Assembly (NCBI GenBank): GCA_963727825.1
Contig: CAVSHO010000009.1
Location: forward strand, 640,001 to 704,000
DNA from: Ignavibacteriota bacterium
Lineage (GTDB): Bacteria > Bacteroidota > Ignavibacteria > UBA10030
DNA length: 64,000 nucleotides
Direction of reading: 5' to 3'
Shown: positions 29,703 through 55,111 of the stretch, in pieces
Numbering within the stretch: position 1 is the first letter of the stretch
Layout of the letters: each line of letters starts with the position of its first letter
Translations under genes and position numbers: made by a program
The notes under the pieces: generated by a model
Databases searched by the model: none
Told to the model about the DNA's origin: nothing
The model's input: only the letters and a program-made list of their open reading frames with translations

Positions 29703-29727
29703 TGATAAACTCCTTTATTCGATCGTA

Positions 29728-32199: not shown

Positions 32200-32224
32200 A
32201 TAAGTTCTCTATCATTTAAAAATT

Positions 32225-33310: not shown

Positions 33311-33335
33311 TATTCATTTCCTAAAAATAGTCTCG

Positions 33336-34397: not shown

Positions 34398-34435
34398 TAT
34401 ATTTCCTTTGCTCCTTGATTAAAACATTCTTTTTC

Positions 34436-35308: not shown

Positions 35309-35321
35309 AACCTATTCTCCA

Positions 35322-35912
35322 TTACTTTGCATTATTCGCTTCGTATTGTTCTACCTCTTTGCTGAATCGTCGCAAGTATTCCAATTCATCTACGCCGTTC
35401 AAGAGACAAAATTTTGAAAACGGATCAATTGGAAACGATGCACTTATTCCTGATGGAAAAACGATTTGCTGTTTCTCAAGATCAATTGTCACTTCGGCAT
35501 TCGGTGACTTCTGAATTTCTTCTTTTAACTGCCGATGTTCTTCTTGAGTGAGGATGACTGGAAGCAGTCCGTTTTTCATCGAGTTGCTGCGGAAGATATC
35601 TGCAATTGTTGTGCTGATAACCGCTCGAAATCCGAATGCCGTAAGCGCCCACGGTGCATGCTCGCGTGATGAACCGCACCCGAAATTATCTCCCGCTAAC
35701 AAGACTTGTGATCCACGATGTTGTTGTTGATTTAATACAAAATCAGATTTTGGAGAACCATCGGTATTGTACCGCCAATCACAAAACAATTGTTCACCGA
35801 GTCCTTTTTTATCCGTGACTTTCAAAAATCTTGCAGGAATGATTTGATCCGTGTCAATATTATCCACTAACAGTGGAACAACGCGAGATATAAGTTTAGT
35901 AAATGTTGCCAT
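35322..35912 (-). CDS. leuD: 3-isopropylmalate dehydratase small subunit
   Basis: NIDTDQIIPARFL and NFGCGSSREHAPWAL motifs. Confidence 0.96.
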   Translation of the reverse strand: MATFTKLISRVVPLLVDNIDTDQIIPARFLKVTDKKGLGEQLFCDWRYNTDGSPKSDFVLNQQQHRGSQVLLAGDNFGCGSSREHAPWALTAFGFRAVISTTIADIFRSNSMKNGLLPVILTQEEHRQLKEEIQKSPNAEVTIDLEKQQIVFPSGISASFPIDPFSKFCLLNGVDELEYLRRFSKEVEQYEANNAK

Positions 35913-35945
35913 AGTATTTTTTGTCTTTAAGGATTGAAATTGAAT

Positions 35946-36746
35946 TTATCGTTTAATGGCTTCGACCTCAAGCCGCACCATATTAACATGAACCACACCG
36001 TTTTCATCAGCAGGATGATATTTGAGATAGTCATCTGCTAACTGAGTTATAAAAAATTCTCTATCTTCTTCCGGTACCCGATGCGTATAAGGAAGCCAAG
36101 TTGTTCTGACCCACGATTCGAAACCTGAGCGACCGTCATGTTTTGCATCTTTTGGAATCAGTTCCACACGTTTTGCCACTAACCCAGCTTCACGAAGCCA
36201 TAATCTATATTCGTCAGGTCCATAGAAACCATAAGAAAAATTGAAACCAATGAAGTACCTGCTCCACTCTTCTTTAGTGATCAGTTTCTTCATTGTAATT
36301 TCAACCTCATATGCATTATTACGTCCGCCCATTTGTAAAAGAATATTCCCGCCCCTTTTCAGACCTGAATAAATACACTTCAGTACAGGCTTATGATCAA
36401 GAATCCAATGCAAAGTCGCATTAGAAAAAACTACGTCGAATTCGTTGTCGAACATTAACCTGCTTGCATCTCCTCGTTGAAACCGCAAGTTGGGAAAAAC
36501 ATCTGTCGAGTACTTGCTTTGTGCAAGCGCGACCATCGCCTCTGAGCTGTCAATGCCAACGACAGACCCATTCGGCAAGCAACTGGCAATCTCGGCGCTG
36601 ACTTTACCATCACCGCTTCCAATGTCGAGAAGCTTTTCGCTACCTTTCAACTTTAGTTTGCCGATAAGCTCACGCGCCCATTGTTGTTGAATACTGGAAC
36701 TTTTTGCATAATCAACAGCATTCCATTGATAAGTTTGAACGTCCAT
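35946..36746 (-). CDS. Class I SAM-dependent methyltransferase (trans-aconitate methyltransferase-like)
   Basis: W...Y N-terminus, LDIGSGDG, GIDSS..M and FDVVFSNATLHW motifs. Confidence 0.85.
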   Translation of the reverse strand: MDVQTYQWNAVDYAKSSSIQQQWARELIGKLKLKGSEKLLDIGSGDGKVSAEIASCLPNGSVVGIDSSEAMVALAQSKYSTDVFPNLRFQRGDASRLMFDNEFDVVFSNATLHWILDHKPVLKCIYSGLKRGGNILLQMGGRNNAYEVEITMKKLITKEEWSRYFIGFNFSYGFYGPDEYRLWLREAGLVAKRVELIPKDAKHDGRSGFESWVRTTWLPYTHRVPEEDREFFITQLADDYLKYHPADENGVVHVNMVRLEVEAIKR

Positions 36747-36749
36747 TAT

Positions 36750-38162
36750 TTAATCCGTTAGTAATGTGCGAACATCGGTAATCCTACCGGTAACAGCGGC
36801 AGCAGCAGCAGTTAGTGGAGAAGCAAGAAGCGTCCTTCCGCCTTTACCTTGCCGTCCTTCAAAATTACGATTGCTCGTCGAGACGGCATATTGACCTGCT
36901 TTAATTTCATCGCCATTCATAGCGATGCACATTGAACAGCCGGATTCGCGCCATTCGGCGCCAGCATCTGTAAATATTTTGTGCAATCCTTCAGCTTCCG
37001 CCTGCCGTTTGATTTCTTGTGAACCGGGAACGACCATCGCACGTACATTCAGTGCAACTTTGCGTCCTCGGAATACACGTGCGGCATCTCGTAAATCAGA
37101 CATGCGGCCATTGGTACAACTTCCTATAAACACAACATCGATCTTCTTTCCTACAAGAATCTCATTCGGCTCGAAACCCATATAGTGAAGAGATTTCTCC
37201 AATGTCTGCTTATCTGTTGCGTTCTTTGAACTCGATGGATTTGGAATGCGTCCGGTGACAGGTATTCCCATTCCTGGATTTGTACCAAATGTCAGCATCG
37301 GCTCAAGTTTTGAAATATCCAATGTGACCGTTGTATCATACGTAGCACCTGCATCTGTTGGTAAAGAACGCCATGACATCAACGCTTTTTCCCATGCGTC
37401 ACCTTTCGGAGCAAACTCCCGATTTGCAAGGAACTCAAACGTTTTATCATCCGGAGCCATCATACCGGCGCGTGCACCGCCCTCTATAGACATATTGCAG
37501 ACAGTCATTCGTTCTTCCATAGAAAGCGATTTCACAGTTGATCCTGTGTATTCAATTACATGTCCTGTACCACCACCAACACCTATCTTTGCTAAAAGCG
37601 CAAGTATTATATCTTTTGCGGAAACACCATTACTCAATCTTCCTTCAATGCGAACTTCCATTGTTTTGGGAAGACGCTGCAGCAGACATTGCGTTGCCAG
37701 TACATGCTCAACTTCACTGGTCCCGATACCGAATGCAAGTGCACCGAAAGCTCCATGAGTTGCCGTGTGACTGTCACCGCAGACAATTGTCATTCCCGGC
37801 TGAGTTAAACCGCGTTCTGGACCAATAATATGTACAATTCCACGTTGTGGATGATCTTTTCCGTAAAGTTGAAAACCAAATTCCTGCGCATTTATTTCCA
37901 TCTGACGCATTTGTTTCGCTGCAAGTTCATCGGAAATAGGAACGGAAGGAGGCAAAGTCGGAATGCTATGATCCATTGTTCCGACGGTGCGATCAGGACG
38001 CCGTACTTTAAGTCCGCGACGACGCAGACCATCGAATGCTTGAGGCGAAGTAACTTCATGAACAAGTTGCAAATCTATGTACAGAACAGCGGGCGATTCT
38101 GGTTCCTGCGCAACGACATGTCGATTCCAGACTTTTTGAAATAGTGTAAGTGGTTGAGACAT
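36750..38162 (-). CDS. leuC: 3-isopropylmalate dehydratase large subunit
   Basis: [25 protein letters not shown] and [12 protein letters not shown] motifs; start at MSQPLT. Confidence 0.97.
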
Positions 38163-38210
38163 AATATAATCCATTTGATTTGATAAAATATTTTCTTTGT
38201 CTATTGTCAA

Positions 38211-38591
38211 TTATTTGATATTTATAAATTCTATTCTCTTTGATAATGTTTTCTTCACTGGACAGCTTTGTGCTACCCGTATAAGCTTCTCTTTTTCTTG
38301 TACGGTTAATTTTCCATTAATCTTTACCTTGTATTCAAATGTAACAAATTCAGGATCGTTTCTATTAAGCGACACTTCTGTCTTCACCTTAGAAACACTC
38401 ATTTTATGATTTTCAGCAAACATCCTTATATGCATATTCATGCAACATGCTACTGCTGCCTCCAGAAGCTCATGTGGCCTAAAACCAGAATTACTTCCCC
38501 CTTTATCAATCGTTGTATCTGAAAAGGCTGAATGTTTTCCATTAGAAAATTCTGTTCCATAATTATTTTCGACATTTTTTGTTTTTATCAT
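38211..38591 (-). CDS. OsmC/Ohr family protein
   Basis: GG...G.RPHELLEAAVACC and CPVKKTL two-Cys pattern. Confidence 0.88.
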   Translation of the reverse strand: MIKTKNVENNYGTEFSNGKHSAFSDTTIDKGGSNSGFRPHELLEAAVACCMNMHIRMFAENHKMSVSKVKTEVSLNRNDPEFVTFEYKVKINGKLTVQEKEKLIRVAQSCPVKKTLSKRIEFINIK

Positions 38592-39292
38592 TTTATTGCC
38601 ATTGCATATTTAAGTATGCTTTCTACATGTATTTCGGTCGTATTCAATAATTTGAAATTAATAAAATCCTCTTTTTTCAAGATAAAAGGTAATTCAGTTC
38701 CGCCTAATATCAGACCTTCAATACCATTCAATTCAATCATCTCATTAGTAATATCTATCAATTTCTCCTTTGTCTCCGATCGAAATATTCCATTCACAAG
38801 TTCATTCATATATTTGTCATGAATATAATTCTGTGATTCTATCTGTGGCGTTATAATCTCTATTCCTTCCTTGGAAAATCCTGTTTGATAAAATCCACCT
38901 TGCATTGTTGATTTTGTTCCAAATAGTCCAAGCTTTTTTATGCCGAGTTTTTTCGCATATGAAATCGTTACATCAACGATACTGATTAATGGAATACTAG
39001 ATCGCTTCTGCAATTGCTCAAAAACAATGTGCGGTGTATTGGATGCTATTGCTGCAAAATCAGCACCGCCATCTTTCAGCTTCTGAATCTCACTGCTTAT
39101 ATACTCAATTAATCCGTGATACTCTTTTTTCGCGATAAAATTTAACACCCGCGTCATATCAATACTGTTAATCAATATTGACGGATATTGAAGAGTCTTT
39201 CCCTTTTCCTGAAATCCAGAAATTATCTTCTGATAATAATCTATTGTCGATGGAGGTGCAATTCCTCCTATAATTCCGATAACTTTTTGCAT
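38588..39292 (-). CDS. Aspartate/glutamate racemase family protein (RacX/YgeA-like) with substituted catalytic residues
   Basis: IGIIGG, STIDYY, ASNTPH, GLFGT..TM and LGGTELP motifs. Confidence 0.85.
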   Translation of the reverse strand: MQKVIGIIGGIAPPSTIDYYQKIISGFQEKGKTLQYPSILINSIDMTRVLNFIAKKEYHGLIEYISSEIQKLKDGGADFAAIASNTPHIVFEQLQKRSSIPLISIVDVTISYAKKLGIKKLGLFGTKSTMQGGFYQTGFSKEGIEIITPQIESQNYIHDKYMNELVNGIFRSETKEKLIDITNEMIELNGIEGLILGGTELPFILKKEDFINFKLLNTTEIHVESILKYAMAIK

Positions 39293-39330
39293 AGAGCTAC
39301 TGAAACAATAATACTATTCTCCGGAACTGC

Positions 39331-40860
39331 TTAATTTTGCTGTTCTTCTTTCCGCTTTTTTGATGCCAAGGCCCGATTAAGCGCTTCTAAGTACGCACGC
39401 GCGCTGCCTGCAAGAATATCTGTGCTAGCGGCACGGCCGTTAAACAGCACACCATCAAACTCAACGCGCACAAATACTTCGCCGACTGCATCATGGCCAA
39501 GACTAACAGATTTGATAGAATATTCCGTCAGTTTACCAATGACACCAGTAATACGTTCAATCGCTTTATAGGAAGCATCCACAGGACCGTCACCCGTCGC
39601 TGAATCCACAATTGTTTTATCGCCTTGCTGCAGCTCAATTGTTGCGGTCGGACGAAGATTCGTTCCACTGACGATTTGAATATTCGTCAAACTAAACACT
39701 TCTTCAATTTCGCTCGAGGTTTCAAGAATCGCTTCAAGGTCCTCATCAAACACTTCTTTCTTTTGATCGGCAATCTCGCAGAAGAGTTTATAAGCACGCT
39801 GAAGTTCATCATCCGATAATTTGTATCCTAATTCAGTATAACGCTGTTTCAGTGCATGCCTGCCGGAATGTTTTCCAAGTACCAACATTGTATGCTTGAT
39901 ACCAACAGACTGCGGCGTCATAATTTCATAAGTGATCGGGCTTTTTAATACGCCATCCTGATGAATACCAGCTTCATGGGCGAATGCATTCGCACCTACA
40001 ATTGCTTTATTTCGTTGAACCATCATGCCGGTTAGACTGCTTAATAATTTACTTGATTTGTAAATCTCTTGTGTATCGATATTCGTTTTGAGTCCAAGTT
40101 TTTCATGCCGCGTCTTGATAGCCATAGCTATTTCTTCTAACGAAGCATTGCCCGCACGTTCACCAATGCCGTTAAGAGTGCATTCTACTTGCCGCACACC
40201 ATTTTGAATTGCAGCAATAGAATTGGCAACTGCCAGACCAAGATCGTTATGACAGTGTGAACTCAAAACCGCTTTCTTGATATTTGGCACTCGTTCGCGA
40301 ACCATACGAAACATAGCGCCATATTCGTCTGGAATAGCATACCCTACCGTATCGGGCAGATTAATAATACTTGCACCGGCGTCAATTGTTGCTTCGACAA
40401 CTGTGCACAAATAGTTAATATCGGTACGAGAGGCATCTTCGCAAGAAAATTCTACCTCCTCACAAAGCGATTTGGCATATGTCACCGCCCACACTGCATC
40501 CTGTAAAACTTGCTCACGTGATTTTTTAAGCTTGTACTTCAAATGCAAATCCGACGTTGCCAAGAAAATGTGGATTCGCGGTTTGACCGCACTTTGGATT
40601 GCTTCCCAGGCGCGATCGATATCCAATTTTACAGTCCGAGCAAGTGCCGCGACCGTACATGTTTTAATCTTTTCTGCAATAAGTTTTACTGCCTCGAAAT
40701 CGCCAACAGATGCAATTGGAAACCCTGCTTCAATCGCATCTACGCAAAGAAGTTGAAGTTGACGGGCAAGACGAAATTTTTCTTCTATATTCATACTGCA
40801 ACCGGGAGATTGCTCGCCATCGCGTAGTGTCGTGTCAAAAATGTATATTAGGTTTTCCAT
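39331..40860 (-). CDS. leuA: 2-isopropylmalate synthase
   Basis: DTTLRDGEQ, HCHNDLG, GIGERAGN, HEAGIHQDG motifs and a regulatory domain (GDGPVDA). Confidence 0.96.
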   Translation of the reverse strand: MENLIYIFDTTLRDGEQSPGCSMNIEEKFRLARQLQLLCVDAIEAGFPIASVGDFEAVKLIAEKIKTCTVAALARTVKLDIDRAWEAIQSAVKPRIHIFLATSDLHLKYKLKKSREQVLQDAVWAVTYAKSLCEEVEFSCEDASRTDINYLCTVVEATIDAGASIINLPDTVGYAIPDEYGAMFRMVRERVPNIKKAVLSSHCHNDLGLAVANSIAAIQNGVRQVECTLNGIGERAGNASLEEIAMAIKTRHEKLGLKTNIDTQEIYKSSKLLSSLTGMMVQRNKAIVGANAFAHEAGIHQDGVLKSPITYEIMTPQSVGIKHTMLVLGKHSGRHALKQRYTELGYKLSDDELQRAYKLFCEIADQKKEVFDEDLEAILETSSEIEEVFSLTNIQIVSGTNLRPTATIELQQGDKTIVDSATGDGPVDASYKAIERITGVIGKLTEYSIKSVSLGHDAVGEVFVRVEFDGVLFNGRAASTDILAGSARAYLEALNRALASKKRKEEQQN

Positions 40861-40871
40861 AGTTTGTTTTC

Positions 40872-41912
40872 CTACAATGTTTTGTTTTCGAGTAGTGCTA
40901 ATTTACGAACCCACTCCATTAATATTCCAAATTGTTCTGGTGTCAACGATTGCGCACCATCCGAAAACGCCGCTTCCGGATGTGGATGAACTTCAATAAT
41001 TAATCCGTCGGCGCCAACAGCAATAGCTGCTTTTGCAAGCGGAGTAACAAGACTGCGGACGCCAGTGCCATGACTTGGATCAACGATCACAGGCAAATGA
41101 CTCAGCTCTTTCAAAGCTGGCACCGCTGAGAGGTCGCAAGTATTGCGTGTGTATTCTTCGAACGTTCTGATGCCTCGTTCGCAGAGAATGACTTGTTCGT
41201 TACCCTGCGACATAATGTATTCTGCTGACATCAGCAATTCTTTCAACGTGCTGGACTGTCCGCGTTTTAGCAAAACCGGTTTTTTAAATTTGCCGATATC
41301 TTTTAGCAGTGCAAAGTTTTGCATGTTACGCGCGCCAATCTGCAAAATATCTGCATAGTCTGCCACAAGCGGTATGTCAGTCGGAGTGATTACTTCCGTA
41401 ATAATGAGTAGACCGGTTTTTTCACGCGCTTCGGCAAGCAGTTTTAATCCTTCTTCTTCTAAACCTTGAAATGCATAAGGCGATGTCCTCGGTTTGAACG
41501 CGCCTCCACGGAGAACTTTTGCTCCAGATTTCTTCACTAATTCTGCCGAAAGGAGAATCTGTTCGCGACTTTCAACCGAGCAAGGTCCCGCCATGACAAC
41601 AATATTACCGTTACCGATGATTACAGGCGGCAGATCGCTTTCATTTGGAGCTGGAATTGTGATGACTGTCCGAGACTCGTTCCATTCTCGGCTTGCAAGC
41701 TTAAACGGCTTTAGAATCGGGACAACATTTTCGACGCCATCAAGTGTTTCGAGTGCTTGCAATCGGTACTTCCCGCGTTCATCGCCCACGCAAGCAATTA
41801 CAGTTCGCAATTCTCCATAAATTGGGTGCACGCGGAACCCAAGTTCTTGTACTTTCTCAAATACACGTTCAATTTGCTGCTGGCTCGCACCAGCTTTCAT
41901 TACGATTATCAT
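40872..41912 (-). CDS. aroF: DAHP synthase, type I-beta with N-terminal ACT/ferredoxin-like domain
   Basis: MIIVMK N-terminus; [26 protein letters not shown] and DPSHG motifs. Confidence 0.94.
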
Positions 41913-41944
41913 TAAATAATTTTCTATTTGTCAGAAACCAAATA

Positions 41945-43526
41945 TTATTTGATATTTTTTGCCTTATGATTTAACAAATGATAACTGATTGAGTCGACCA
42001 GCGCTTTCCAGCTTGCTTCAACTACATCCGGAGATACGCCGACCGTATTCCATGATGATTCACTATTTTTGGTCTCAATAAGTACACGCACTTTTGCCGC
42101 CGTTGCGTTTTGTGAGTCAAGCACACGCACCTTGTAATCGGTTAAATGAATCTCACTGAGTTCCGGATAAAATTTTTCAAGTGCCTTTCGCAGCGCCTTA
42201 TCAAGTGCATTGACCGGCCCATCGCCTTCAGCTGCAGTAATTTCAGTTTCATCACCTACGCGTATTTTAATAAGCGCCTCAGACCGCGCGTCTTTTTCAA
42301 GATCATCCTTCTGGATACTTACCTTAAATCGTTCTAAATCAAAGAAGTGTTTCATTTCTCCGGTATGCCGCTTCACCATTAACTCAAAAGATCCTTCGGC
42401 ATCTTCATAACTGTAACCGTAGTGTTCCATTTCTTTGATTTCATCAACAATTTTTTGTACAGCAGGAGATTTTTCGTCAAGCTTCACGCCTAATTCTTTC
42501 ACTTTGAAGAGGACATTACTTCGTCCCGAAAGATCTGAAATGAGAACCCGGCGTACGCTGCCAACTGTTTCCGGTACGATATGTTCATAGGTGAGTGCAG
42601 TTTTCATTACGGCACTGACGTGAACACCGCCTTTGTGGGCAAATGCACTCTCGCCGACGAATGGAAGATTCTTCTGATGTTTCATGTTTGCCAGTTCACT
42701 CACGTACCGTGAAACGCTTGTAAGATGTTGCAGCTGTTCATCCGTAATACAGCTATAGCCCATTTTTAATTGAAGATCGGGTATAATTGTACATAGGTTG
42801 GCATTCCCGCACCGCTCACCATAGCCGTTGATCGTTCCCTGGACTTGAACGCATCCTTCACGTACCGCTATCAACGAACTTGCGACTGCGGTTCCAGAAT
42901 CGTTATGAGTGTGAATACCAAGCGGAGTAGAGATACTTTTTTTGACTTCGCACACAATCTCTGCTATTTCCCATGGCAGGGTTCCGCCATTGGTGTCGCA
43001 CAAAACAAGAATTTCTGCACCCGCCTTGGCAGCAGCAGTTAATGTCTGTAAGGCATATGCTTTATTCATGTTTATACCCGTCGAAGAAATGTTCTGCATC
43101 GTAGATCACTTCTTTTCCGTGTTTCTTAAGATATGCTACGGAGTCGTTGATGATTGCCAAATTTTCTTCAGGTGAAATTTGTAGCGCTTCTTTGACATGG
43201 AGCAGCCAGCTTTTGCCGAAAATGGTGACGACCGGTGTCTGAGCATCCAACAGAGCGCAAATATTCTCATCTTTCTCGACAGGATTTTTTGCACGTCGTG
43301 TAGAACCAAACGCCACGATTTTTGCATGTAAAAATTTAGTGCTGCGGGCACGTTTGAAGAATTCCATATCTTTTGGATTCGAACCAGGCCAGCCGCCTTC
43401 GATATACGACACACCAAACGCATCAAGCCGTTTGGCAATCTTTATCTTATCTTCGGCAGAGAAAGAGATCTCTTCCCCTTGTGTGCCGTCGCGCAGTGTT
43501 GTATCATACAGAAATATTTTTTTCAT
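41945..43526 (-). CDS. cimA: Citramalate synthase; split by one extra base at ~43070
   Basis: [34 protein letters not shown] | [18 protein letters not shown] and [11 protein letters not shown] motifs of the bacterial CimA family. Confidence 0.92.
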
Positions 43527-43564
43527 AGATGACCTTTGAACGATCTATGGTTTATTGCATTCTT

Positions 43565-43592
43565 GTAGAGACATTCAATTGAATGTCTCTAC
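43565..43592. repeat. GTAG-type REP-like perfect palindrome, copy 2
   Basis: GTAGAGACATTCAATTGAATGTCTCTAC, a 28-bp perfect palindrome between ilvC and cimA. Confidence 0.8.
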
Positions 43593-43601
43593 TTATTGAT
43601 T

Positions 43602-44702
43602 TTAATTCTGTCCTCGTCCACCGATTCCTTTGACGCCTTTGGAAATATCTTTTGCTTTCTCTTTAGGACGTAGCGCACGAACAGCAGCACCGGCGCGCCA
43701 CATTTCGGAATTATGGATCTCTCCAAGTTTTTTTGACAGATACTTCTGATAATCTTTGCCGCCACAATCGCGAATCACTTCACGAGTTTCCTGTCCGCTC
43801 TTAACGGATTTGTAGAGCTTCTCGAATACTGGAAGGTTTATCTTACGGAAAATCGGCCTCCATTTGAGCGCTCCATGCTGAGCGGTAACGGAACAGTTGG
43901 AATACATCCAATCCATTCCATTCTCATCAACGAGCCGGATAAGACTTTGTGTAAGTTCTTCGACTGTTTCGTTGAAAGCTTCCGACGGTGAATGTCCGTT
44001 CTTGCGAAGCACATCATACTGTGCTTGCATGATACCTGCGAGCGCACCCATCAGAACTCCACGTTCGCCAGTAAGATCACTATAAACTTCCTTCAGAAAG
44101 GTTGTAGGGAATAAATAGCCCGAGCCGACTGCAATTCCAATAGCCAGGCAGCGTTCTTCTGCGTGTCCGGTTGCATCCTGGAAAACACCATAACTGGAAT
44201 TGATGCCTGCGCCAGATAGAAAATTTCGGCGGACGTTGAGACCGGATCCTTTAGGGGCAACCAGGATCACGTCAACGCTTTTCTGGGGAACCACACCAGT
44301 TTGTTCTTTATATGTAATGGAGAATCCATGTGAAAAGTACAGCGCATCTCCTGATTTGAGATTCTTTTTAACCGTCGGCCAAATTACACGTTGAGCTGCA
44401 TCAGATACCAGCATCATAACAATAGTTCCACGTTGAACTGCTTCCTCAATCGGGAAAAGTGTTTTGCCTGGAACCCAACCGTCTTTCACCGCACGATTCC
44501 AATCTTTCTTATATTCTTTTGCCTGGCCAACAATTACCTTAATGCCGTTGTCTTTCATGTTCAGCGCCTGAGCAGGCCCTTGAACACCGTAACCAATGAC
44601 GGCCACAGTTTCTTTTCTTAGAACTTTGCGTGCTTTTGCAAGTGTAAATTCCTTTCTGGTAACAACTTTCTCTTTGTTTCCACCAAAATCGATAATTGTC
44701 AT
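43602..44702 (-). CDS. ilvC: Ketol-acid reductoisomerase
   Basis: IGYGVQG, FSHGF, VAPKGSG, EVYSDLTGERG and CSVTAQ.G motifs. Confidence 0.96.
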   Translation of the reverse strand: MTIIDFGGNKEKVVTRKEFTLAKARKVLRKETVAVIGYGVQGPAQALNMKDNGIKVIVGQAKEYKKDWNRAVKDGWVPGKTLFPIEEAVQRGTIVMMLVSDAAQRVIWPTVKKNLKSGDALYFSHGFSITYKEQTGVVPQKSVDVILVAPKGSGLNVRRNFLSGAGINSSYGVFQDATGHAEERCLAIGIAVGSGYLFPTTFLKEVYSDLTGERGVLMGALAGIMQAQYDVLRKNGHSPSEAFNETVEELTQSLIRLVDENGMDWMYSNCSVTAQHGALKWRPIFRKINLPVFEKLYKSVKSGQETREVIRDCGGKDYQKYLSKKLGEIHNSEMWRAGAAVRALRPKEKAKDISKGVKGIGGRGQN

Positions 44703-44748
44703 TTTTTTCTCCTTATTTAGAATGATTGCTTTTTTATTTTCACAATTC

Positions 44749-46170
44749 CTATGGTAAATTTGAAAATCCCATTAAATGAATATCTATTGCACGAGCAGCT
44801 TTTCGCCCTTCTGCAATTGCCCATACGACTAACGATTGACCCCGCCGCATGTCACCTGCTGCAAATACTTCAGGGACAGAAGTCATGTAATTTTCGTCAG
44901 TGGAAATATTCCCGCGGGAATCGAGCGCAACACCCAACTCATCAAGCAGTCCGCTCTTCGTCGGGCCAATGAATCCCATTGCGATAAGTACAAGATCTAC
45001 ATTAATAGAAAATTCAGATCCTGGAACAGGTTTAAAATCGGGGGCAGGACCAACACGTACGGCATGCAGTTTTTTAACATTGCCTTCAGCATCGCCTTCG
45101 AAACGAGTTGTTGCAATGGACCAATCTCGTATACCACCTTCTTCGTGAGCACTTTCTGTACGCAATTGCAACGGCCATAGCGGCCACGGCGTGCTGGGAG
45201 AACGGTCAACCGGAGGTTTAGGCATAATTTCAAATTGGTGAACTGATTTCGCCTTTTGCCGATGAACGGTACCAAGACAGTCAGCGCCGGTATCTCCACC
45301 GCCAAGAATTATCACCTGCTTGCCGGTTGCAAGAATTTCTTCTGCCGGATTAACAATCGTGCCGCCAACACGCTTATTTTGCTGCGTGAGAAAATCCATT
45401 GCAAAGTGGATTCCTTTTAATTCACGCCCCGGCACTTTTAGATCACGCGGTGATTCAGAGCCACCGCATAAAAGTATTGCATTATACGAGCGCTGCAATT
45501 CATCAGATGCAATATTGACTCCGACATGGGCTTTAGTCGCAAACACAATTCCTTCTGCTTGCATAATCTCAATACGCCGATCCAATTGATATTTTTCCAA
45601 TTTGAAATCAGGAATTCCATATCGCATTAACCCACCGATGCGATCGTTTTTCTCATACACTGTTACATGGTGTCCAGCTCGATTCAATTGCTGTGATGCT
45701 GCAAGTCCTGCCGGCCCCGATCCAACCACAGCAATCGTTTTCCCAGTCCGTACCGCAGGACGCTCAGCCCTGATCCACCCTTCGCGGAACGCAACATCAA
45801 TAATTGATTGCTCAATCGCCTTGATAGCAACAGACGGTTCATTGATACCCAACACGCATGCGGCCTCGCACGGTGCCGGGCAAATGCGTCCGGTAAATTC
45901 CGGAAAATTATTTGTCGAGTGCAAAATACGTATCGCTTCTTTCCATCGATTGCGGTACACAAGATCATTCCAATGTGGAATAACATTGTTTAGCGGACAC
46001 CCTTGATGACAGAACGGAATTCCGCAATCCATACAGCGCGCACCTTGTGTACGTACTTTTTGGCCGGTAAATTCTTGATAGACATCTTTCCAATCTCGGA
46101 TACGCTCTGCAACCGGCCGACGCGCCGGCGTTTCGCGCTTAAATTCTAAAAATCCGGTCGGCTTACCCAC
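44749..46170 (-). CDS. gltD: Glutamate synthase small subunit
   Basis: GTG start MGKPTGF; [25 protein letters not shown] and GGGDTG motifs. Confidence 0.96.
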
Positions 46171-49100
46171 GGGATACCTCATTGACAACCGTTGTTGATG
46201 TTTTTTTATTTATAGACTCATTTGTTGCAATGCCTAATACTCTTTTATAGTCATGTGGAAATACTTTTACAAACTTTTTTACATGCTGTTGCCATTGATC
46301 AAGAATAAATCGTGCGCGTGGGCTTGCAGTGTATTCAAAATGTTTTTCTACAAGTTTTCGAACCGTTTCTTCATCCTGTGCATCAAGTGGATCAACATCA
46401 ACCATGGATCGGTTGCATAATGTTGCAGAAAATTCACCGGATTCATCGAGCACATACGCAAAACCGCCTGACATCCCTGCCGCAAAATTCTTCCCTGTTG
46501 AGCCAAGGACAACTACTATGCCGTTAGTCATATATTCGCAGCCGTGAGCACCAACCGATTCTACAACAGCAGTTGCGCCAGAGTTGCGGATAGCAAAACG
46601 TTCGCCTGCTTTTCCATTGAAGTACGCTTCGCCGCTTATTGCTCCATAGAGAACAACATTTCCGACTACCGTATTTTCCTCTGGTATGCATTTCGATCTA
46701 TGCGGCGGATGAATGATAAGTTTCCCTCCTGACAGGCCTTTTCCTGTATAGTCGTTGGCATCCCCTTCAAGCATTAAGGTGATACCGTGTGCGAGAAATG
46801 CACCAAAACTCTGGCCCGCAGAACCGGAAAAATTAATCTTAATAGTATTATCCGGCAATCCAGCAGAACCATACTTCCTGGCAATCTCGCCACTGAGCAT
46901 TGCACCTACCGTCCGATGAACGTTTCGAATTGGAAGATCAAATTCGATCGGTGCTGCATTTTCAATTGCAGACTTTGCTTTTTCAATCAATTGGTGATCG
47001 AGCACATCATTCAGTCCATGATCTTGCAGAGTTTGACTACGGCGGCCAAATCGTGACGGTGCCGGAGGATTATGCAGAAGGAACGATAGATCAACATATT
47101 TTGCTTTCCAATGCTTGACGTCTTTTCTAGGTTCCAGCATATCTACACGCCCAACCATTTCATCAATCGTTCTAAATCCAAGCTTTGCCATAATCTCTCG
47201 CAATTCTTCGGCAACGAAGAAAAAGAAATTGATAACATGTTCCGGAGTTCCCACAAACTTTTCACGCAACGCCGGATCTTGTGTTGCAATGCCTACCGGA
47301 CATGTATTAAGATGGCATTTTCGCATCATAAGGCAGCCCATTGAAATTAATGGCATGGTCGAAAAGCCAAATTCTTCTGCACCTAATAATGACGCAATAG
47401 CAACATCGCGTCCTGTTTGTAATTTTCCATCAGTCTGCAAACGGACACGGCTGCGCAAGTCGTTCAATACAAGCACCTGTTGTGCTTCCGCAAGTCCTAT
47501 TTCCCAAGGAATGCCGGCATGTTTGATAGATGATAACGGCGATGCTCCAGTACCACCTGAATCGCCGCTGATAAGAATCGAATCTGCATGCGCCTTCGCA
47601 ACACCAGCAGCGACTGTACCGACTCCATTTTCCGAAACAAGTTTCACCGAAATGCGAGCGTGCGGATTCACATTTTTCATGTCGAAAATTAATTGCGCCA
47701 AGTCTTCGATAGAATAAATATCGTGATGCGGTGGCGGCGAAATAAGTTGTACGCCCTGAATAGAGTGGCGTGTTCTCGCAATGATGGCATCTACTTTGTG
47801 ACCGGGAAGCTGTCCGCCCTCACCGGGTTTTGCGCCTTGAGCTATTTTAATCTGGATTTCATCTGCATTTACCAAATAGTTTGCGGAAACACCAAACCGA
47901 CCAGAGGCAATTTGTTTAATAGCGCTCCGGCGAAGGTTTCCGTCGGCATCAGGTTTAAAACGTTCTTCATCTTCGCCGCCTTCGCCTGTGTTCGATCTGG
48001 CACCCATGCGGTTCATTGCAACAGCGAGTGTCTCATGCGCTTCTTTACTGATAGAACCGTAAGACATTGCTCCTGTAACGAATCGTTTGACAATTTCTTT
48101 TTCCTGTTCTACTTCTTCTATTGGAACAGCGCGTGTTCCTTTCTTGAATTCCATTAGTCCGCGCAGATTATACAATCCTCCATCCTGATTATTGAGATGC
48201 TGCGCATATTCCTTATAACTTTTTTTGTCCGAAAATCGTACTGCTTGCTGGAGCTTCGTGATGGTTGATGGATTCACCATATGCCGTTCACCGTTAATGC
48301 GGAAGTAATAATTCCCGCCGAGATCAAGCTCTGTATCGGCACCGGTGAGCTTCCGGAATGCAAAGTCGTGTTTCATTTTTGCTTCCTGCGCTATCACACT
48401 CAATCCGATACCCCCGATGCGCGATGAGATACCTGTGAAATATTTTTCTACAAGTTCCTTTCCCAGGCCGATTGCTTCAAACACCTGCGCACCCTGATAA
48501 CTTTGTAGTGTGGAAATACCCATTTTCGACATAGTTTTGAGTATTCCCTTATTCACGGCTTTTTTATAATTGTAAACTGCTTTTTCAAGTGTAAGACCTT
48601 CCGGAAAATATTCGCGATTTGAAAGTTCTTCCAATGTTTCGAAAGCAAGATACGGATTGACCGCGCTTGCACCAAATCCGATTAGCAGGCAGTAATGCAT
48701 CACTTCACGCGGCTCGCCGGATTCAACAACCAGTGCTACTTGCGTACGAGTTTTTTCCCGGACGAGATGGTTATGCACCGCAGTCAATGCCAGCAAACTC
48801 GGAATCGCTGCATATTCTTCATCAATTCCACGATCAGAAAGAATAATAATGGTGTATCCTGATTTAATCGCCAATGACGCGCGGCGGCAAAGTCCGTCTA
48901 ATGCACGTTCAAGTTCCTTTTCTCCGCCATCAACCCGGAAGAGCATCGGCAGCATCGTGGCAAGAAAATCCCCCTGTGAGACACGACGCATTTTTTCCAG
49001 ATCGCGGTTGGTCAGTATCGGTTCCGGCAGTTTCAGTGTATGGCAATGTTGAGGCGTTTCTTCCAGTAAGTTACCTTCCGTTCCAATATAACTTGTCAGC

Positions 49101-50722
49101 GACATTACTAGTTCTTCGCGGATCGAGTCAATCGGCGGATTCGTGACCTGGGCAAAATTCTGTTTAAAGTAATTGAACAATGACTGCGGTTTATCCGACA
49201 AGCATGCCAGCGGTGTATCCGCACCCATCGAACCGACAGGTTCCTGTCCCTCTACTGCCATCGGGACCATTATCATCCGAATATCTTCGTCGGTGTACCC
49301 GAACGCACGCTGCCGTTTCAGTAAATCTTCCGGGCTAAAACCGATCTCGCGTGGAGGTTCAGCCAGCTGATCCAGCCGGATTTGATTTTCTTGAATCCAT
49401 TGAGCATAAGGCTGACGCTTTGCAAGCCTGGCTTTAATCTCTTCATCTGGAATAATTCTCTTTTCTGTCAAATCAGCAAGCAGCATGTTGCCCGGTTCCA
49501 GGCATCCTTTGTGTTTTACATTTTCCGGTTCAATGTCCAATACGCCCGCCTCTGACGCCATGATTAGAAAATTATCATGCGTTACTAGAAAACGTGCAGG
49601 ACGGAGTCCGTTCCGATCAAGCGTTGCACCAATAACCCGCCCATCAGTAAATGCGACAGCTGCAGGACCGTCCCACGGCTCCATCAATGATGCATGGTAT
49701 TCATAAAATGCGCGTTTCTCCGTCGACATTCCGGTATCCGCATCCCAAGCTTCAGGAATAAGAATTGTCATTGCATGAGGAAGACTGCGCCCACTCATCG
49801 TTATTAGTTCTACTGCATTATCCAATGCCGCAGAGTCGCTTACAGCAGGCTGGATAATGGGGAATAATTTTTCGATTTCATCACCAAATACTGCCGACTT
49901 CAGTACCGATTGGCGCGCGTGCATCCAGTTCACATTACCGCGTAAAGTATTAATCTCTCCATTATGACAAATATACCGGAATGGATGTGCAAGCTGCCAA
50001 CTTGGAAACGTATTCGTTGAGAACCTCTGATGCACAAGACAGAGAGCGCTCATCGTATCAGGATCCGATAATTCTTTATAGAAACGTGCAATCTGCGGCG
50101 CTATCAGTAATCCTTTATAAATAATGGTATAAGACGAAAGTGATGGAACATAAAAGAAATTTTTATTCTGGATATTCGACGTTGCAATTTCCAATTCGGC
50201 GCGTTTCCGAATAATGTACAGTTTACGTTCAAATTCTTCGCGGGTTATACCGGTGGCAGTTCGAATAAATACTTGTTCGATATACGGCTGTGATACGCGT
50301 GCAACACGGCCGATAGCATCTGCATCAAGTGGAGTATCACGCCACCCGAGCATACTCAATCCTTCTTCCTGCACAATTCGTTCGATGATGGCTTCGCATT
50401 CAAAACGCGGCTGAGGTTCAACCGGCAGAAACAACATTCCAACGCCATATTCACCTTCAGGTGGCAGCGTAAAACCAATTTTCTCGCATTCTCTTGTAAA
50501 AAACTTATATGGAATCTGTATGGTAATACCCGCACCATCTCCTGTTTTTGGATCAGAACCGCTTGCACCGCGATGTGCAAGGTTCACCAATATCTGGATC
50601 CCTTTCATAATGGTTTCATGCGAACGTTCAGCGTTCACATTAACGATAAAACCGATTCCGCATGCATCGTGTTCATTACGCGGATCATACAATGGAAAAT
50701 TTTTTAACACTGTTGGAGTCAT
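46163..50722 (-). CDS. gltB: Glutamate synthase large subunit
   Basis: EHDACGIG Ntn Cys, [18 protein letters not shown] and [13 protein letters not shown] motifs. Confidence 0.98.
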
Positions 50723-50757
50723 ATCTGTCTATTTCTACCTCTTCATTTACTTGTAAG

Positions 50758-51276
50758 CTATGCCTCGCCTTGAAACTCTCTTTTAATCGCTACGCGACCT
50801 GTGCGTGCCAATTCTTTGATACCGAAGGGCTTAAGCATATTAATAATTGCATCCACCTTCAGCTGCGAGCCCGTCGCTTCAATAGTTAGTGTTTTTGGGC
50901 TGACATCCACTACTTTCGTGCGGAAAATTTCCGAGATCTGCATGATCTCCATCCGTGTTATTGGAGTGGATTGTACTTTTACTAACGCGAGTTCTCTATC
51001 GACAAATGTATCTTCTGTTAAATCTACTACCTTAATCGTATCGATCAGTTTGTGAAGCTGCTTCATGATTTGCTCGATGATCTGATCGTCACCGCGTGTC
51101 ACAATGGTCATGCGCGAGACAGCTTCATCTTCAGTCGGACCGACTGTGAGACTGTCAATATTGTACCCCTTCGCTGCAAAGAGTCCTGCAATTCTATTCA
51201 GTGTGCCAAAATGGTTCTCCACCGTCATTGAAATCGTATGCTGCTTAGATTGATCATTTGAAGTTGATGATGACAT
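50758..51276 (-). CDS. ilvN: Acetolactate synthase regulatory subunit
   Basis: VENHFGTLNRIAGLF, NIDSL and RELALVKV...E.ARTG motifs. Confidence 0.95.
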   Translation of the reverse strand: MSSSTSNDQSKQHTISMTVENHFGTLNRIAGLFAAKGYNIDSLTVGPTEDEAVSRMTIVTRGDDQIIEQIMKQLHKLIDTIKVVDLTEDTFVDRELALVKVQSTPITRMEIMQISEIFRTKVVDVSPKTLTIEATGSQLKVDAIINMLKPFGIKELARTGRVAIKREFQGEA

Positions 51277-51303
51277 GGTGTTTTCTCCTGTTTTTCAACA
51301 ACA

Positions 51304-53064
51304 TTATCCTTTTGCATGAATCATCGTTTTATGGGTCGCATGGTTTTGTACCAGCGGTTCCGGACTATCCATTATTTCATTCACTGTCTGTCCTGCTGGA
51401 ATCATAGGATATACATTTTCTTCCGGCGCAACGACAAACTCTGTCAGCATAGGACCATCTTTATGCGCAAGCGCCTTATGGATTGCGTTTTCCACATCTG
51501 CCGGCGATGTAACACGCTGTGCTGGAATACCGTATGCTTCGGCTACCTTCACAAAGTCCGGACTCGTAATACGTGTATTCGAATACCTTTTCTTCCAAAA
51601 GAATTCCTGCCATTGGCGAACCATACCAAGAAATCCATTATTCATAACAAATATTTTCACGGGAAGCTTATTATGTGCAATGGTTTCCAATTCCTGAATA
51701 TTCATTTGAAAACCGCCGTCGCCACTTATGCAAAAAACCGGCAAGTCGTTCCTACCAAAAGCCGCACCCATCGACGCCGGGAGCGAAAATCCCATTGTTC
51801 CGAGTCCGCCCGATGTGATTTGCGTTCGCGGATGTTTCCATTTGAAAAACTGTGCTGTCCACATTTGCGATTGACCGACATCGGATACAACGATGGCATC
51901 GCCGTCTGTGATTTCACCAAGCTTATGAATAATATACTGAACACGAAGTGACCCGTCATGTTTATACCGTAATGGATGTTCAGCTTTCCATCCGTCAATA
52001 GTTTTTAACCACTCCTTTGTATTCAGTAGTTTTACAAATTCGTTTAAATGTTTGAGAACGCGTTTTACATCTCCGACGATGGGAACATCCACCGGAACAT
52101 TTTTGCTAATAGCAGACGGATCAATATCGATATGAATTCTTTTTGCGTTCTTTGCAAATTCCTTTACATTTCCGGTCACACGATCATCAAACCGAGCACC
52201 AATGGCAACAAGCACATCACACTGATCAACAGCCATATTAGAGTACCAGGTGCCATGCATGCCCAGCATACCGAGCGCCAGCTTACTTTGCTCAGGATAC
52301 ACACCCAATCCATGCAACGTCGTAGTGATCGGAGCGTGAAGTTTGTCTGCAAGTGCGCGAACCTCCGTGGATGCATTTGAACTGATAACACCGCCGCCGA
52401 CATATAAAAGAGGCCGTTTCGCTTCATTAAGAAGTTCTGCCGCCTTCTTGATTTGTCTAAGGTTTCCCTCCACAACTGGATTGTAACTGCGGAGCGAAAT
52501 CGTCTTAGGATATTCAAAAACCGCTTTCGCCGCAAGAACATCTTTCGGTAAATCAACAAGCACTGGACCTGGACGCCCTGTAGTGGCAATATAAAATGCT
52601 GCCTTAATAGTATTTGCCAGATCGTTGACATCTTTCACAAGATAATTATGTTTTGTTATCGGACGCGTGATGCCGACGATGTCCACTTCCTGAAACGCAT
52701 CGTTTCCAATGAGCTTCGTGACAACCTGGCCAGTAAACACAACAAGCGGTATCGAATCCATATAGGCATCGGCAATTCCGGTTACTGCATTTGTTGCGCC
52801 AGGACCAGATGTGACAAGTACAACGCCGGGCCTGCCAGTCGTTTTCGAATACCCCTCGGCGGCATGCGTTGCTCCTTGTTCGTGCCGCGTGAGAATGTGT
52901 TTGATGTGTGTAAGATCGTGAAGCACATCGTAAATGCCGATAACGACACCCCCTGGATACCCAAAAAGAGTATCGACGCCTTCCTCTACAAGGCATCGCA
53001 CAAAAATCTCTGCGCCTGTCATCAATTTTCCCTGATGATTGTCGTGTGCTTTTGTCGGGGTCAT
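51304..53064 (-). CDS. ilvB: Acetolactate synthase large subunit
   Basis: FGYPGG, RHEQGA, TSGPGATN and GDGGFQMN..E TPP motif; LGMVRQWQ. Confidence 0.97.
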   Translation of the reverse strand: MTPTKAHDNHQGKLMTGAEIFVRCLVEEGVDTLFGYPGGVVIGIYDVLHDLTHIKHILTRHEQGATHAAEGYSKTTGRPGVVLVTSGPGATNAVTGIADAYMDSIPLVVFTGQVVTKLIGNDAFQEVDIVGITRPITKHNYLVKDVNDLANTIKAAFYIATTGRPGPVLVDLPKDVLAAKAVFEYPKTISLRSYNPVVEGNLRQIKKAAELLNEAKRPLLYVGGGVISSNASTEVRALADKLHAPITTTLHGLGVYPEQSKLALGMLGMHGTWYSNMAVDQCDVLVAIGARFDDRVTGNVKEFAKNAKRIHIDIDPSAISKNVPVDVPIVGDVKRVLKHLNEFVKLLNTKEWLKTIDGWKAEHPLRYKHDGSLRVQYIIHKLGEITDGDAIVVSDVGQSQMWTAQFFKWKHPRTQITSGGLGTMGFSLPASMGAAFGRNDLPVFCISGDGGFQMNIQELETIAHNKLPVKIFVMNNGFLGMVRQWQEFFWKKRYSNTRITSPDFVKVAEAYGIPAQRVTSPADVENAIHKALAHKDGPMLTEFVVAPEENVYPMIPAGQTVNEIMDSPEPLVQNHATHKTMIHAKG

Positions 53065-53111: not shown

Positions 53112-54782
53112 TTAACTTCTCAGCATTGCGCCCGTGTTGGCACTGGTCACAAAATGCGAATATCGCCGCAGCCATTTGCTTGTTGTGCGCGGTTTGAATT
53201 CCGGCAGAGATGCAATACGCGAACGGATTTCTTCATCGCTCAGGCGCACGTTCAATGTACGTGCATCCAGATCGATATCTATTGTGTCGCCTGCGCGTAA
53301 TGCAGCAATGGGACCGCCGCTTGCCGCCTCTGGTGAAACGTGTCCGATGCATGCGCCGCGCGTTCCGCCTGAAAAACGTCCATCAGTAATGAGCGCAACT
53401 TTATCTCCCAGTCCCATTCCCATAATAGTTGATGTGGGGGAAAGCATTTCTTGCATACCAGGTCCGCCGCGGGGTCCTTCATATCGGATCACGACAACAT
53501 CGCCAGCTTGAACCTTTCCGGCAAGAATGCCTGCCTGTGCATCTTCCTGACTATCAAAAATTTTCGCCGGACCGCTATGCTTACGCATGGAGGCAGAAAC
53601 ACCAGCAGTTTTGATAACCGCACCTTCGGGCGCAAGGTTTCCGAAAAGAATCGCCAGGCCGCCTTTTTGTGAATGTGGATTTTCTACTGAACGAATAACT
53701 TCTGCGTTCTTCACTTTTGCTTTTGCAATAATACTGCGCAATGTTTTTCCGCTCACGGTCAACCGATCAAGATGAAGCAGATCATCCTCTTTGCGTGTTA
53801 CTTCATGGAGAATTGCAGGAACGCCGCCTGCTTTGTGCAAATCTTCGATATGCCAGGGACCGGATGGACTGATTTTTGACAAATGCGGAATCCTATCAGC
53901 CACTTCATTGATACGCGAAAGCGGATAATCTATTCCGGCTTCGTTGCAGAATGCAAGCGTGTGCAGCACTGTGTTGGTACTTCCACCCATCGCCATATCC
54001 AATGCAAAAGCATCATCGATCGCGTCCTTGGTGACGATATCGCGGGGTCTGATGTTCTTTTCAATCAATTTCATGATTATTTTTCCTGCTTCCTTCGTGA
54101 GATCGTTCCGCTGTTTGCTTTTCGCAAGAGCTGTGCCGTTAAAGGGCAGCGCCAGTCCGATAACTTCTAAGAGACAGTTCATGGAGTTCGCTGTGAAAAG
54201 TCCCGAACAGGAACCGCAGGACGGGCAGGCAAATTTTTCAAGTATCTTTAATCGCTTTTCATCTATCGTACCGGATTTATACTCGCCGACTCCTTCAAAC
54301 ACGGAAATCAGATCGACTGTTTTGCCATCGGGGGTTTTTCCGGCTTTCATCGCTCCGCCAGTGACAAAAAAAGTGGGGATATTCGTACGGAGAGCGCCCA
54401 TGACCATACCGGGAACAATTTTATCGCAGTTTGGTATGCAAACCATGCCATCGAAAGCATGCGCCTCAATCATCGTTTCTACACAATCGGCAATTAGTTC
54501 ACGTGAAGGCAAGCTGTATTTCATTCCGACATGCCCCATCGCAATGCCATCGTCAACAGCGATTGTGTTAAACTCGAATGGTACACCACCAGCCGCGCGG
54601 ATAGCGTTCTTTACTAACTTTCCGAATGCCTGTAAGTGCACGTGGCCTGGCACGATATCCGTGTAGGAATTCGCAACAGCAATAAACGGCTTGCCAAAGT
54701 CTTCCTCTTTTACGCCAGTTGCTCGAAGAAGAGCCCGGTGCGGTGCTCGTTCAAAACCTTTTTTAATTTGATCGCTACGCAT
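53112..54782 (-). CDS. ilvD: Dihydroxy-acid dehydratase
   Basis: [25 protein letters not shown] and TDGRFSGG motifs. Confidence 0.97.
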
Positions 54783-54824
54783 AATTCATTCCTTTCTGAC
54801 AAAAAATAACATACTTTTTCACCT

Positions 54825-54938
54825 GCCAGAGGCGAACGTTGCAAGACCTGAATTTGTTGGATACCGATTTCGGTGTGCTTCGTCAGCCTCTGGCTTTTCT
54901 CAGCCTACAATAATAAGGCTAAGTGTAAGCGCGAGGCT
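54825..54938 (-). promoter_or_regulatory. Attenuator-like structured leader of the ilvD superoperon
   Basis: Perfect 9-bp long-range stem GCCAGAGGC (54894-54886)/GCCTCTGGC (54833-54825). Two CTTAGCCT copies in the leader ORF can pair with AGGCTGAG (over the stop codon) or with GAGGCTGA (the 5' arm of the long stem). Confidence 0.7.
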
Positions 54939-55055
54939 AAGAATAAGAGTCAGTGGTACAATTACGACGCTAGTTGACAGAACAACCGTAGACACGACGC
55001 TTGCAGAAGCGGTGTTGCCTGTTAAAACGGGGGCGATATGGTTTTTCTGTTCCAC
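54900..55055 (-). CDS. Putative attenuation leader peptide (51 aa; Val/Leu/Ile/Thr-rich)
   Basis: GTG-started MEQKNHIAPVLTGNTASASVVSTVVLSTSVVIVPLTLILSLALTLSLIIVG*: 9 V, 9 L, 5 I, 6 T; ends 117 nt upstream of ilvD. Confidence 0.78.
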   Translation of the reverse strand: MEQKNHIAPVLTGNTASASVVSTVVLSTSVVIVPLTLILSLALTLSLIIVG

Positions 55056-55082
55056 TGTATTTGAGTAAATAAATTCTACTAT

Positions 55083-55111
55083 ACCATACGAAATTCTTTT
55101 CAGTTTGTCAA
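55083..55111 (-). promoter_or_regulatory. Putative sigma70 promoter for the leader peptide/ilvD operon
   Basis: TTGACA-N17-TATGGT on the minus strand, ending 27 nt upstream of the leader GTG. Confidence 0.55.

Follow-up and report, generated by a model that had tools for sequence, protein, structure and literature searches.

What does the short open reading frame (ORF) between a promoter and ilvD, the first gene of a large amino-acid biosynthesis cluster, contribute to expression of the genes behind it? In the window, the 64,000-nucleotide stretch of an Ignavibacteriota genome that we analysed, the entire element (promoter, leader ORF, stem and ilvD) is carried on the minus strand (Table 1), a point on which the initial annotation was silent; the motif positions, the promoter, the 51-codon ORF with 29/51 Val, Leu, Ile or Thr residues (V9, L9, I5, T6) and the stem are all as that annotation gave them. 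The sigma-70-type site is the sole promoter-like match in positions 54600-55400, where 1.3 are expected by chance, and would place the transcription start near 55076 (-). Upstream of the leader start, TTG[ACG]C[ACT]-N16-18-TAnnnT is found in 84/92 homologs, mostly 25-28 nt before the start. No Shine-Dalgarno (SD) sequence was seen before the leader start in the window; TTTAC occurs at 55065-55069 (-), and many homologs without an SD have it 14 nt upstream of their leader start. Among ORFs of 40-60 aa with at least 13 Ile, Leu or Val in their last 20 residues, which number 2/10,286 in the genome, the leader ORF is one, and the leader RNA folds with z = -3.11, none of 100 shuffles being equally stable. 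Assembled RNA contigs from 4 studies cover the leader, some bridging into ilvD, almost all of them <95% alike, and RNA runs had only small shares; because the contigs give no level, strand or ends, we do not count them as evidence. Judged from its sequence features, the element is very probably a leader-peptide attenuator.

Table 1. Features of the ilvD leader element and the genes downstream of it (positions in the window).
Feature	Position	Strand	Remarks
-35 box TTGACA	55106..55111	-	17-nt spacer to -10 box
-10 box TATGGT	55083..55088	-	ends 27 nt before leader start
Leader ORF	54900..55055	-	51 codons, GTG start
Control window of leader	about codons -17 to -2 (LTLILSLALTLSLIIV)	-	from stall scan and codon content
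Segment 1	54933..54941	-	leader codons CTT AGC CTC; predicted to pair with segment 2 (helix 1:2, OFF side)
Inner hairpin over stop codon	54899..54923	-	CTTAGCCT with AGGCTGAG
Segment 2	54881..54894	-	5' arm of long stem
Long-hairpin interior	54839..54880	-	internal loops (AAGCACACC ... GGT..GCA) conserved; apical loop variable, A/C-rich, G-poor
Segment 3 (CGTTCGCCTCTGGC)	54825..54838	-	predicted to pair with segment 2 (ON) or segment 4 (OFF)
Segment 4' (AGGTGAA)	54818..54824	-	can form a short alternative hairpin with segment 3; an A-run rather than a U-run comes next
Segment 4	54784..54801	-	ilvD Shine-Dalgarno (AAAGGA, 54795-54790) and spacer; predicted to pair with segment 3 (OFF)
ilvD, first regulated gene	53112..54782	-	TIGR00110, 825.7 bits (cut-off 618)
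Rest of cluster	26535..53064	-	gene identities by NCBIfam profiles; gaps ≤83 nt

The 28-kb amino-acid cluster of the initial annotation holds good: from ilvD to thrC, 22 same-strand ORFs occupy 28,248 bp with gaps of no more than 83 nt, spacing from which we infer a single transcript. The genes after ilvD are, in order, ilvB, ilvN, gltB, gltD, ilvC, cimA (frameshifted), aroF, leuA, a racemase ORF, leuC, a methyltransferase gene, leuD, proC, leuB, hom, thrA, apgM/homoserine-kinase-like, exporter and thrC. Synthesis of Glu, Pro and aromatic amino acids is also served by the cluster, and the leader does not reflect these.

An ORF and stem comparable to those of the window recur upstream of ilvD in relatives. 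Of 41 related genomes, 27 have ilvD, and the stem motif was present at 25/30 loci (two being the same G008 site). When 185,579 GTDB species genomes were scanned for the exact pattern, 85 stretches matched, one of which the script did not re-find; 46 of them combine an 8-9 bp stem with an ILV-rich ORF, ending 3-8 nt before the stem in all 46, and with ilvD (45) or gltB (1) downstream, and the remaining 39 have neither leader nor such a gene. The 45 matches with listed titles are all labelled as Ignavibacteria or Bacteroidota metagenome-assembled genomes (MAGs). Our core set consists of 49 elements after duplicate removal, 48 of them complete; the 48 leaders begin with GTG (36), ATG (10) or TTG (2) and have 43-51 codons, their starts having been picked within a 42-51 codon window, and across homologs leader length is 43-53 codons. 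Covariance models found the element in 60/151 and then 67/151 genomes (about 45%; E up to 0.5, a few false) of a sample of the order, in 11/151 of a class sample and in 9/151 of a phylum sample, and the only verified matches outside the order are L148, L197 and L199. G000 carries a single copy. The first long ORF after 56 model matches is ilvD (22), ilvB (23), cimA (2), gltB (2), aroF (1) or proC (1), the rest comprising three before ilvD (short ORF or missed frame), one at a contig edge and one false; 51/56 lie upstream of ilv/leu/thr-cluster genes. Thirteen new matches to a stem-only model (R2) were fetched, eight of which are ilvB/ilvD leaders and five (all E >0.02) false, and a search with this model for His, Trp, Phe or Cys versions found none. 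The R1 model match L181 (E 0.0026) proved false on inspection. Rfam held no relevant match for the element (18 loci gave only a tRNA), NCBIfam nothing relevant to the leader, and Pfam nothing above cut-off for 20 leaders, the best, DUF3094 (E 0.0087, 1/21), being below it.

Individual loci show variations on this arrangement. L026 (G038), from the same order, has a classical-looking ilvD attenuator in which a 25-codon Ile/Leu-rich leader is followed by a GC hairpin and poly-T, and its genome is without the long-stem element. Outside the order, L148 (G274) and L199 (G306) have the same kind of leader before ilvD with a shortened or altered stem, and are possibly ancestral or decayed forms. G078 carries a nearly identical pair of ilvD leader copies (C1:1044258 and C2:379651), which reflects either duplication or assembly redundancy. 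In L024 and L048, the hidden start belongs to a ~65-codon ORF downstream of the stem, and in L024 the stop of the short ORF overlaps the ilvD start (ATGA), which suggests that control there may be relayed by translational coupling. In L138, L155, L159 and L197, too, the first known gene follows after a long gap.

The RNA can be divided into segments that form three helices, 1:2, 2:3 and 3:4, which are mutually exclusive by position. CTTAGCCT occurs twice, at 54941-54934 and 54923-54916 (-), with AGGCTGAG at 54906-54899, GAGGCTGA at 54890-54883 and AGGTGAAAAAG at 54824-54814 (all -). The arms of the long stem, GCCAGAGGC/GCCTCTGGC, at 54894-54886 and 54833-54825 (-), form 9 bp enclosing 52 nt; the stem begins 5 nt past the leader stop, and ilvD starts 42 nt past the stem. 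The initial annotation had read this stem as a distal, failed terminator and had proposed a new multibranch mechanism. In our model the stem is instead the ON (anti-sequestrator) helix 2:3, covarying as the partner of segment 2 and having no U-tail, so the missing poly-U after it is expected, and classical 1:2 / 2:3 / 3:4 logic takes the place of the multibranch structure. The ACCG-aaat-CGGT hairpin at 54874-54863 (-) and the T-run (T6, beginning 18 nt after the stem in the window) are not conserved beyond close relatives in the core set.

Covariation supports two of the three helices. The outer 13 pairs of helix 2:3 are 97.8% paired in the core set; in 60 diverse members, double changes occur in 11/18 pairs (2/500 shuffles), and 62 cells are changed on both sides vs 19.7 in shuffled alignments (0/500). 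Helix 1:2 joins leader codons -13 to -11 to the 5' arm of the long stem, and the Ser AGC, Gly GGC and Asn AAC codons of the leader track GGCT, GGCC and GGTT in that arm. Together with the inner hairpin (alignment A1), it gives a covariation of 0.207 (0/500 shuffles) and 33 double-change cells (1/500); two pair-count measures do not exceed shuffles in this alignment. Within the inner hairpin, Ser/Gly at -6 covaries with Gly/Ala at -1, and pair 57-71 is CG in 22, GC in 11, GU in 2 and unpaired in 13. For helix 3:4 the support is energetic, column covariation over the 5 pairs tested, in a poorly aligned region, not going beyond shuffles (372/500). The predicted duplex of segments 3 and 4 in the window (-14.6 kcal/mol) is better than 96.8% of 400 genome start regions, and segment 3 paired with its own start region beats 95% of 400 background starts in 24/49 elements and 90% in 36/49, a pairing that is partly generic because segment 3 resembles the anti-SD. 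Starts and background for this comparison were chosen with a 16S-tail motif. Cognate duplexes surpassed non-cognate ones for all three helices (0/10,000), a result inflated by kinship and therefore not used alone.

We modelled the effect of a stalled ribosome in 48 leaders, assuming a 13-nt ribosome footprint and equilibrium (not co-transcriptional) folding. The value of p(2:3) exceeded 0.5 in 34-44/48 leaders when the A site was placed at codons -14 to -2, as compared with 12-13/48 at -22 to -18 and 2/48 at the stop codon, the loss of 2:3 at the stop being partly built in by the assumed footprint. The stall window that gives 2:3 matches the region of densest control codons. When segment 2 was covered (ribosome at stop), the ilvD start was predicted to be harder to open in 45/49 core elements (median +4.1 kcal/mol), and start opening was costlier in 31/40 wider members; the window copy shows a difference of just 1.7 kcal/mol (5.1 vs 3.4), and its ribosome-free RNA folds ON (p 0.99), not OFF. 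In the fed state, fewer than 5 bp of 3:4 form in about 10/49 core elements (hand count), and SD hiding is predicted in about 39/49.

These results are consistent with a leader-peptide attenuator of classical four-segment logic and mainly translational output, a reading that we consider probable, with SD sequestration as the likely main output in the window. A shortage of charged tRNA-Leu or -Ile (here also Thr, perhaps Val) would stall the ribosome at about codons -17 to -2, so that segment 1 is covered and segment 2 can form the long 2:3 stem, which would occupy segment 3 and keep the ilvD start open (ON). With ample charged tRNA, a ribosome at the stop codon would cover the start of segment 2, or would depart so that 1:2 forms, and the released segment 3 would pair with the ilvD SD region (OFF). 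Untranslated ilvD mRNA could then undergo Rho polarity termination, extending control to the cluster. The analysis shows the conservation and geometry of the element, the covariation of 1:2 and 2:3, the pairing potential of 3:4 and the pathway-following codons, and from these we infer leader translation, stalling, in vivo switching and the Rho step. The ribosome-stalling leader-peptide switch of the initial annotation is supported, with composition rather than sequence conserved, stems that covary and no match in Rfam, and the control of ilvD translation that it mentioned is the likely output.

The OFF state could instead be intrinsic termination at the short hairpin TTCGCCT/AGGTGAA (with AACGT/ATGTT), followed by a weak U-rich tail near 54809-54801 and set by the same 1:2/2:3 switch. 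We regard this as unlikely for the window: the short hairpin would form first in transcription, and the window and 24/49 core elements pass a lenient hairpin-plus-T test, itself without a null, but under a strict intrinsic-terminator test the core set shows no enrichment (3/49 vs 10/196 shuffled tails) and the window fails, no GC hairpin directly followed by a U-tract being present on the minus strand of its leader. A run of at least 4 T is absent in about half of the core elements and otherwise lies 9-19 nt after the stem, and L002 and L012 have a broken short hairpin together with a strong 3:4 duplex (-16.3). The family as a whole can use terminators, since 14/43 wider members pass the strict test; these are mostly leaders before ilvB of family f7, in which segment 3 fails to reach the start and a terminator-like hairpin takes the place of that pairing. 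Most likely, then, the OFF helix acts as an SD sequestrator in the window and as a terminator in f7. Leader translation might also gate a Rho-loading site directly, in the manner of mgtA and corA, with a C-rich, G-poor stretch between segments 2 and 3 left single-stranded in the OFF fold to load Rho and the SD pairing secondary. Attenuation of this kind, controlled by an upstream ORF (uORF), is established according to the available text of PMC12360218, a rho gene is present in the genome, and C outnumbers G in the loops (in 49 elements, the apical loops contain A 490, C 386, T 230 and G 114, and the whole interior C 610 vs G 330). The candidate stretch, however, is short (about 29-50 nt) and flanked by a helix on each side, selection merely for an unpaired loop would be expected to give the same bias, and Rho loading leaves unexplained the complementarity to the spacer between SD and start codon, where G[AG]A[CT] occurs in 34/49 elements vs 182/838 background starts, all of which makes a direct Rho gate quite unlikely.

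Two further explanations assign the ORF a different role. If the long hairpin bound a protein or small ligand in riboswitch-like fashion, with the ORF secondary, the at least 90% conservation of interior unpaired or weakly paired bases in the core set would be accounted for, and in Streptomyces, leader-codon mutations departed from the attenuation prediction (accessible portion of PMC1262725); this is nevertheless very improbable, as the element has no Rfam match, f7 has lost the hairpin interior but kept the leader and stem, codon content shifts with the downstream pathway, and leader codons covary with segment 2. It is extremely improbable that the ORF encodes an ordinary small membrane protein or a hydrophobic arrest peptide acting as a sensor of membrane insertion. 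The very hydrophobic C-terminal 19 residues (Kyte-Doolittle 2.64), the oddly constant length of 43-53 aa and the Arg-Pro pair that recurs in many homologs would suit such a product, but Phe, Ala and Met are nearly absent from the leader, four Thr and Ile copies are not membrane-like (0.88-1.67 on the same scale), the model matches precede ilv/leu/thr-cluster genes as counted above, there is one copy per genome here, and no Pfam family matches above cut-off.

Preferring the attenuator, we asked which amino acids its leader reads. The last 20 codons of the 48 leaders are 41% Leu, 19% Ile, 10% Val and 4.5% Thr, with Phe at 1.5%, Ala at 2.1%, Met at 0.1% and Cys at 0.1%, and because Phe, Ala and Met are nearly absent the leader appears branched-chain-specific, not generally hydrophobic. 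Composition, rather than sequence, is thus what is conserved, and the ordered V-then-L-then-IIV blocks of the initial annotation are present in the window's sub-clade and not conserved beyond it. TTA/TTG make up 7% of Leu codons in the leaders vs 33% in 13 window genes, an avoidance that agrees with the sensitive control codons predicted by the selective-charging argument (PMC1183508, available part) and is also influenced by pairing constraints and kinship. The strongest evidence on this question is that codon content follows the pathway, since the thr, cimA and gltB-cimA copies carry Thr-run or Ile-rich leaders. The ilvD copy of G060 (L10 I2 V2 T0) precedes ilvD-ilvB-ilvN-leuA-leuC-leuD-leuB-ilvC, and the second copy in that genome, which has a TTTTT run and 8 Thr in its last 20 codons, precedes proC-thrA-thrB-thrC. 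Copies before cimA-leuA (G048, G094) and before gltB (G078, where gltD-cimA follow, and G143) are rich in Ile and contain at most one Val in their last 17 codons, and the G082 copy before aroF-leuA-leuC-leuD-cimA-leuB-ilvE has Leu and Ile and no Val in that stretch.

At least one Thr is present in the last 20 codons of 22/22 leaders linked to thrC (within 35 kb downstream, fragmented genomes left out) vs 7/21 unlinked leaders, an association confounded by kinship, the linked set representing about three independent lineages. Val has a median of 1 in the last 17 codons and is missing there from 21/85 ilv-led leaders; codons -33 to -18 contain 7 Val in the window and a median of 2 in the 85 ilv-led leaders, as against 0-2 in the 6 non-ilv copies. 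The claim that four amino acids are read can therefore be kept in part: sensing of Leu and Ile is well supported by the leader sequences, sensing of Thr is plausible where thr genes share the cluster, as in the window, which belongs to the thrC-linked set, and sensing of Val, which is not enriched, is weakly indicated. Most likely, related bacteria copied the switch and re-tuned it to threonine or isoleucine. A broader joint reading, which we offer tentatively, is that a single duplicated scaffold would accept interchangeable inputs (Leu/Ile/Val, Ile-rich or Thr-run, and mixtures upon operon fusion) and outputs (SD sequestration mostly, an intrinsic terminator in f7 and a few others), with a second layer, absent from the attenuators described so far, in the ON hairpin and leader length, where a bound factor, a pause or Rho gating might act via internal loops and the fixed 43-53-codon length. 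An Arg-Pro pair lies 24-30 codons before the stop in many homologs (e.g. L004, L021, L030, L035) and is absent in the window; it looks conserved as peptide because its synonymous codons vary, and it is possibly a pause.

The element resembles the enterobacterial ilvGMEDA, ilvBN, leu and thr attenuators in its pathway-codon leader ORF, its three exclusive helices, the several amino acids per leader and the ilv target. The three-hairpin attenuator of C. glutamicum ilvBNC (PMC11857589) and the S. aureus ilvD leader (PMC5794164), as far as the available texts describe them, share the pathway-codon leader, exclusive helices and ilv target. Unlike in classical attenuators, the predicted OFF helix here and in most core members covers the ribosome-binding site, without a U-tract, and a long hairpin with interruptions, spanning about 70 nt, serves as the ON helix in the model; f7 members are possibly classical in output. 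Set against the classical family, the element has the codon enrichment and exclusive helices and lacks the terminator and an Rfam or Pfam match. E. coli attenuator leaders are about 14-32 codons long. The leaders described here have 43-53 codons vs 26 in the S. aureus ilvD leader (PMC5794164, available text).

Closer parallels in predicted output are found among translational attenuators. In mycobacterial polycysteine sORF attenuators, as is proposed here, a stall on a short ORF upon amino-acid shortage frees a downstream ribosome-binding site with operon-wide effect, the stalled ribosome itself blocking the sequestering structure, and the accessible portion of the report describes these leaderless Cys ORFs as independently evolved (Canestrari et al., 10.1101/834739). 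In the leaders studied here, unlike in those, the signal would pass from 1:2 to 2:3 to 3:4 by way of an anti-sequestrator, and homologous copies of one scaffold appear re-tuned to different amino acids; moreover, the leader is not leaderless, given the position of its -10 box, and has no Cys tract. The actinobacterial LEU element before leuA shares a Leu-rich leader ORF, the lack of a terminator and predicted SD sequestration, but belongs to a different phylum, and its Leu codons pair directly with the SD at a pseudoknot base (PMC1262725, accessible portion), whereas the folds predicted here, in a model of nested pairs without pseudoknots, join the codons to segment 2 and segment 3 to the SD. 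As in the present model, the position of a ribosome on a leader ORF decides SD hiding in ermC and cat, which, in the available parts of the sources, respond to antibiotics (10.1101/834739, PMC2965389), whereas the proposed signal here is charged-tRNA shortage. The Rho attenuators of mgtA/mgtL, corA/corL and tnaC are similar in that uORF translation remodels a leader without an intrinsic terminator (PMC12360218, available text); unlike in these, the predicted OFF helix here includes the start region, and the Rho site is putative. The ilvD (WRC-18-2) and ilvB (WRC-14-1) motifs, which occur in Veillonella and Leptospira alone, are likewise structured leaders of these genes and, in the accessible text of PMC8632094, are presented without mention of a uORF; we set them apart by description, not sequence. 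A T-box or metabolite riboswitch finds no counterpart here in an Rfam covariance-model match. Lopatovskaya et al. 2010 surveyed attenuation, including variants that overlap the ribosome-binding site, according to the available part of PMC4833913. The literature that we covered, freely accessible main texts and abstracts and in one search 30 of 222 results, contained no description of this attenuator family, which is apparently undescribed.

Amino-acid attenuators are mostly known as transcription terminators, and tested translational ones that sense amino acids are few. The family offers about 100 natural variants on one scaffold in which the sensed codons and the output module vary, some genomes having two or three differently tuned copies, and would allow study of how amino acids are gained or dropped when operons fuse or split and of how a terminator output changes to a translational one. 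It also provides a regulatory handle, the first in this analysis, on amino-acid synthesis in a MAG-represented lineage, together with a compact sensor part for Leu, Ile or Thr.

Several features of the surrounding DNA are also worth recording. Upstream of the element, an ORF at 55245-55625 (-) encodes 126 aa with two CxxC pairs; it has no NCBIfam or Pfam match, and its C-terminus presumably resembles a DksA/TraR-like zinc finger. Within the cluster, a frameshift near 43065 divides cimA (41945-43526, -) into two overlapping ORFs; the gene is a single frame in G006 and G010, pointing to either an assembly error or a recent pseudogene. Between ilvC and cimA, a 12-bp hairpin at 43565-43592 resembles a terminator when read on the plus strand; it is perhaps a repeat element, or may affect transcription of the operon. 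A stand-alone homoserine dehydrogenase gene (32225-33310, -) directly precedes the bifunctional thrA (29728-32199, -), and an apgM-like gene occupies the place in the cluster where thrB would be expected.
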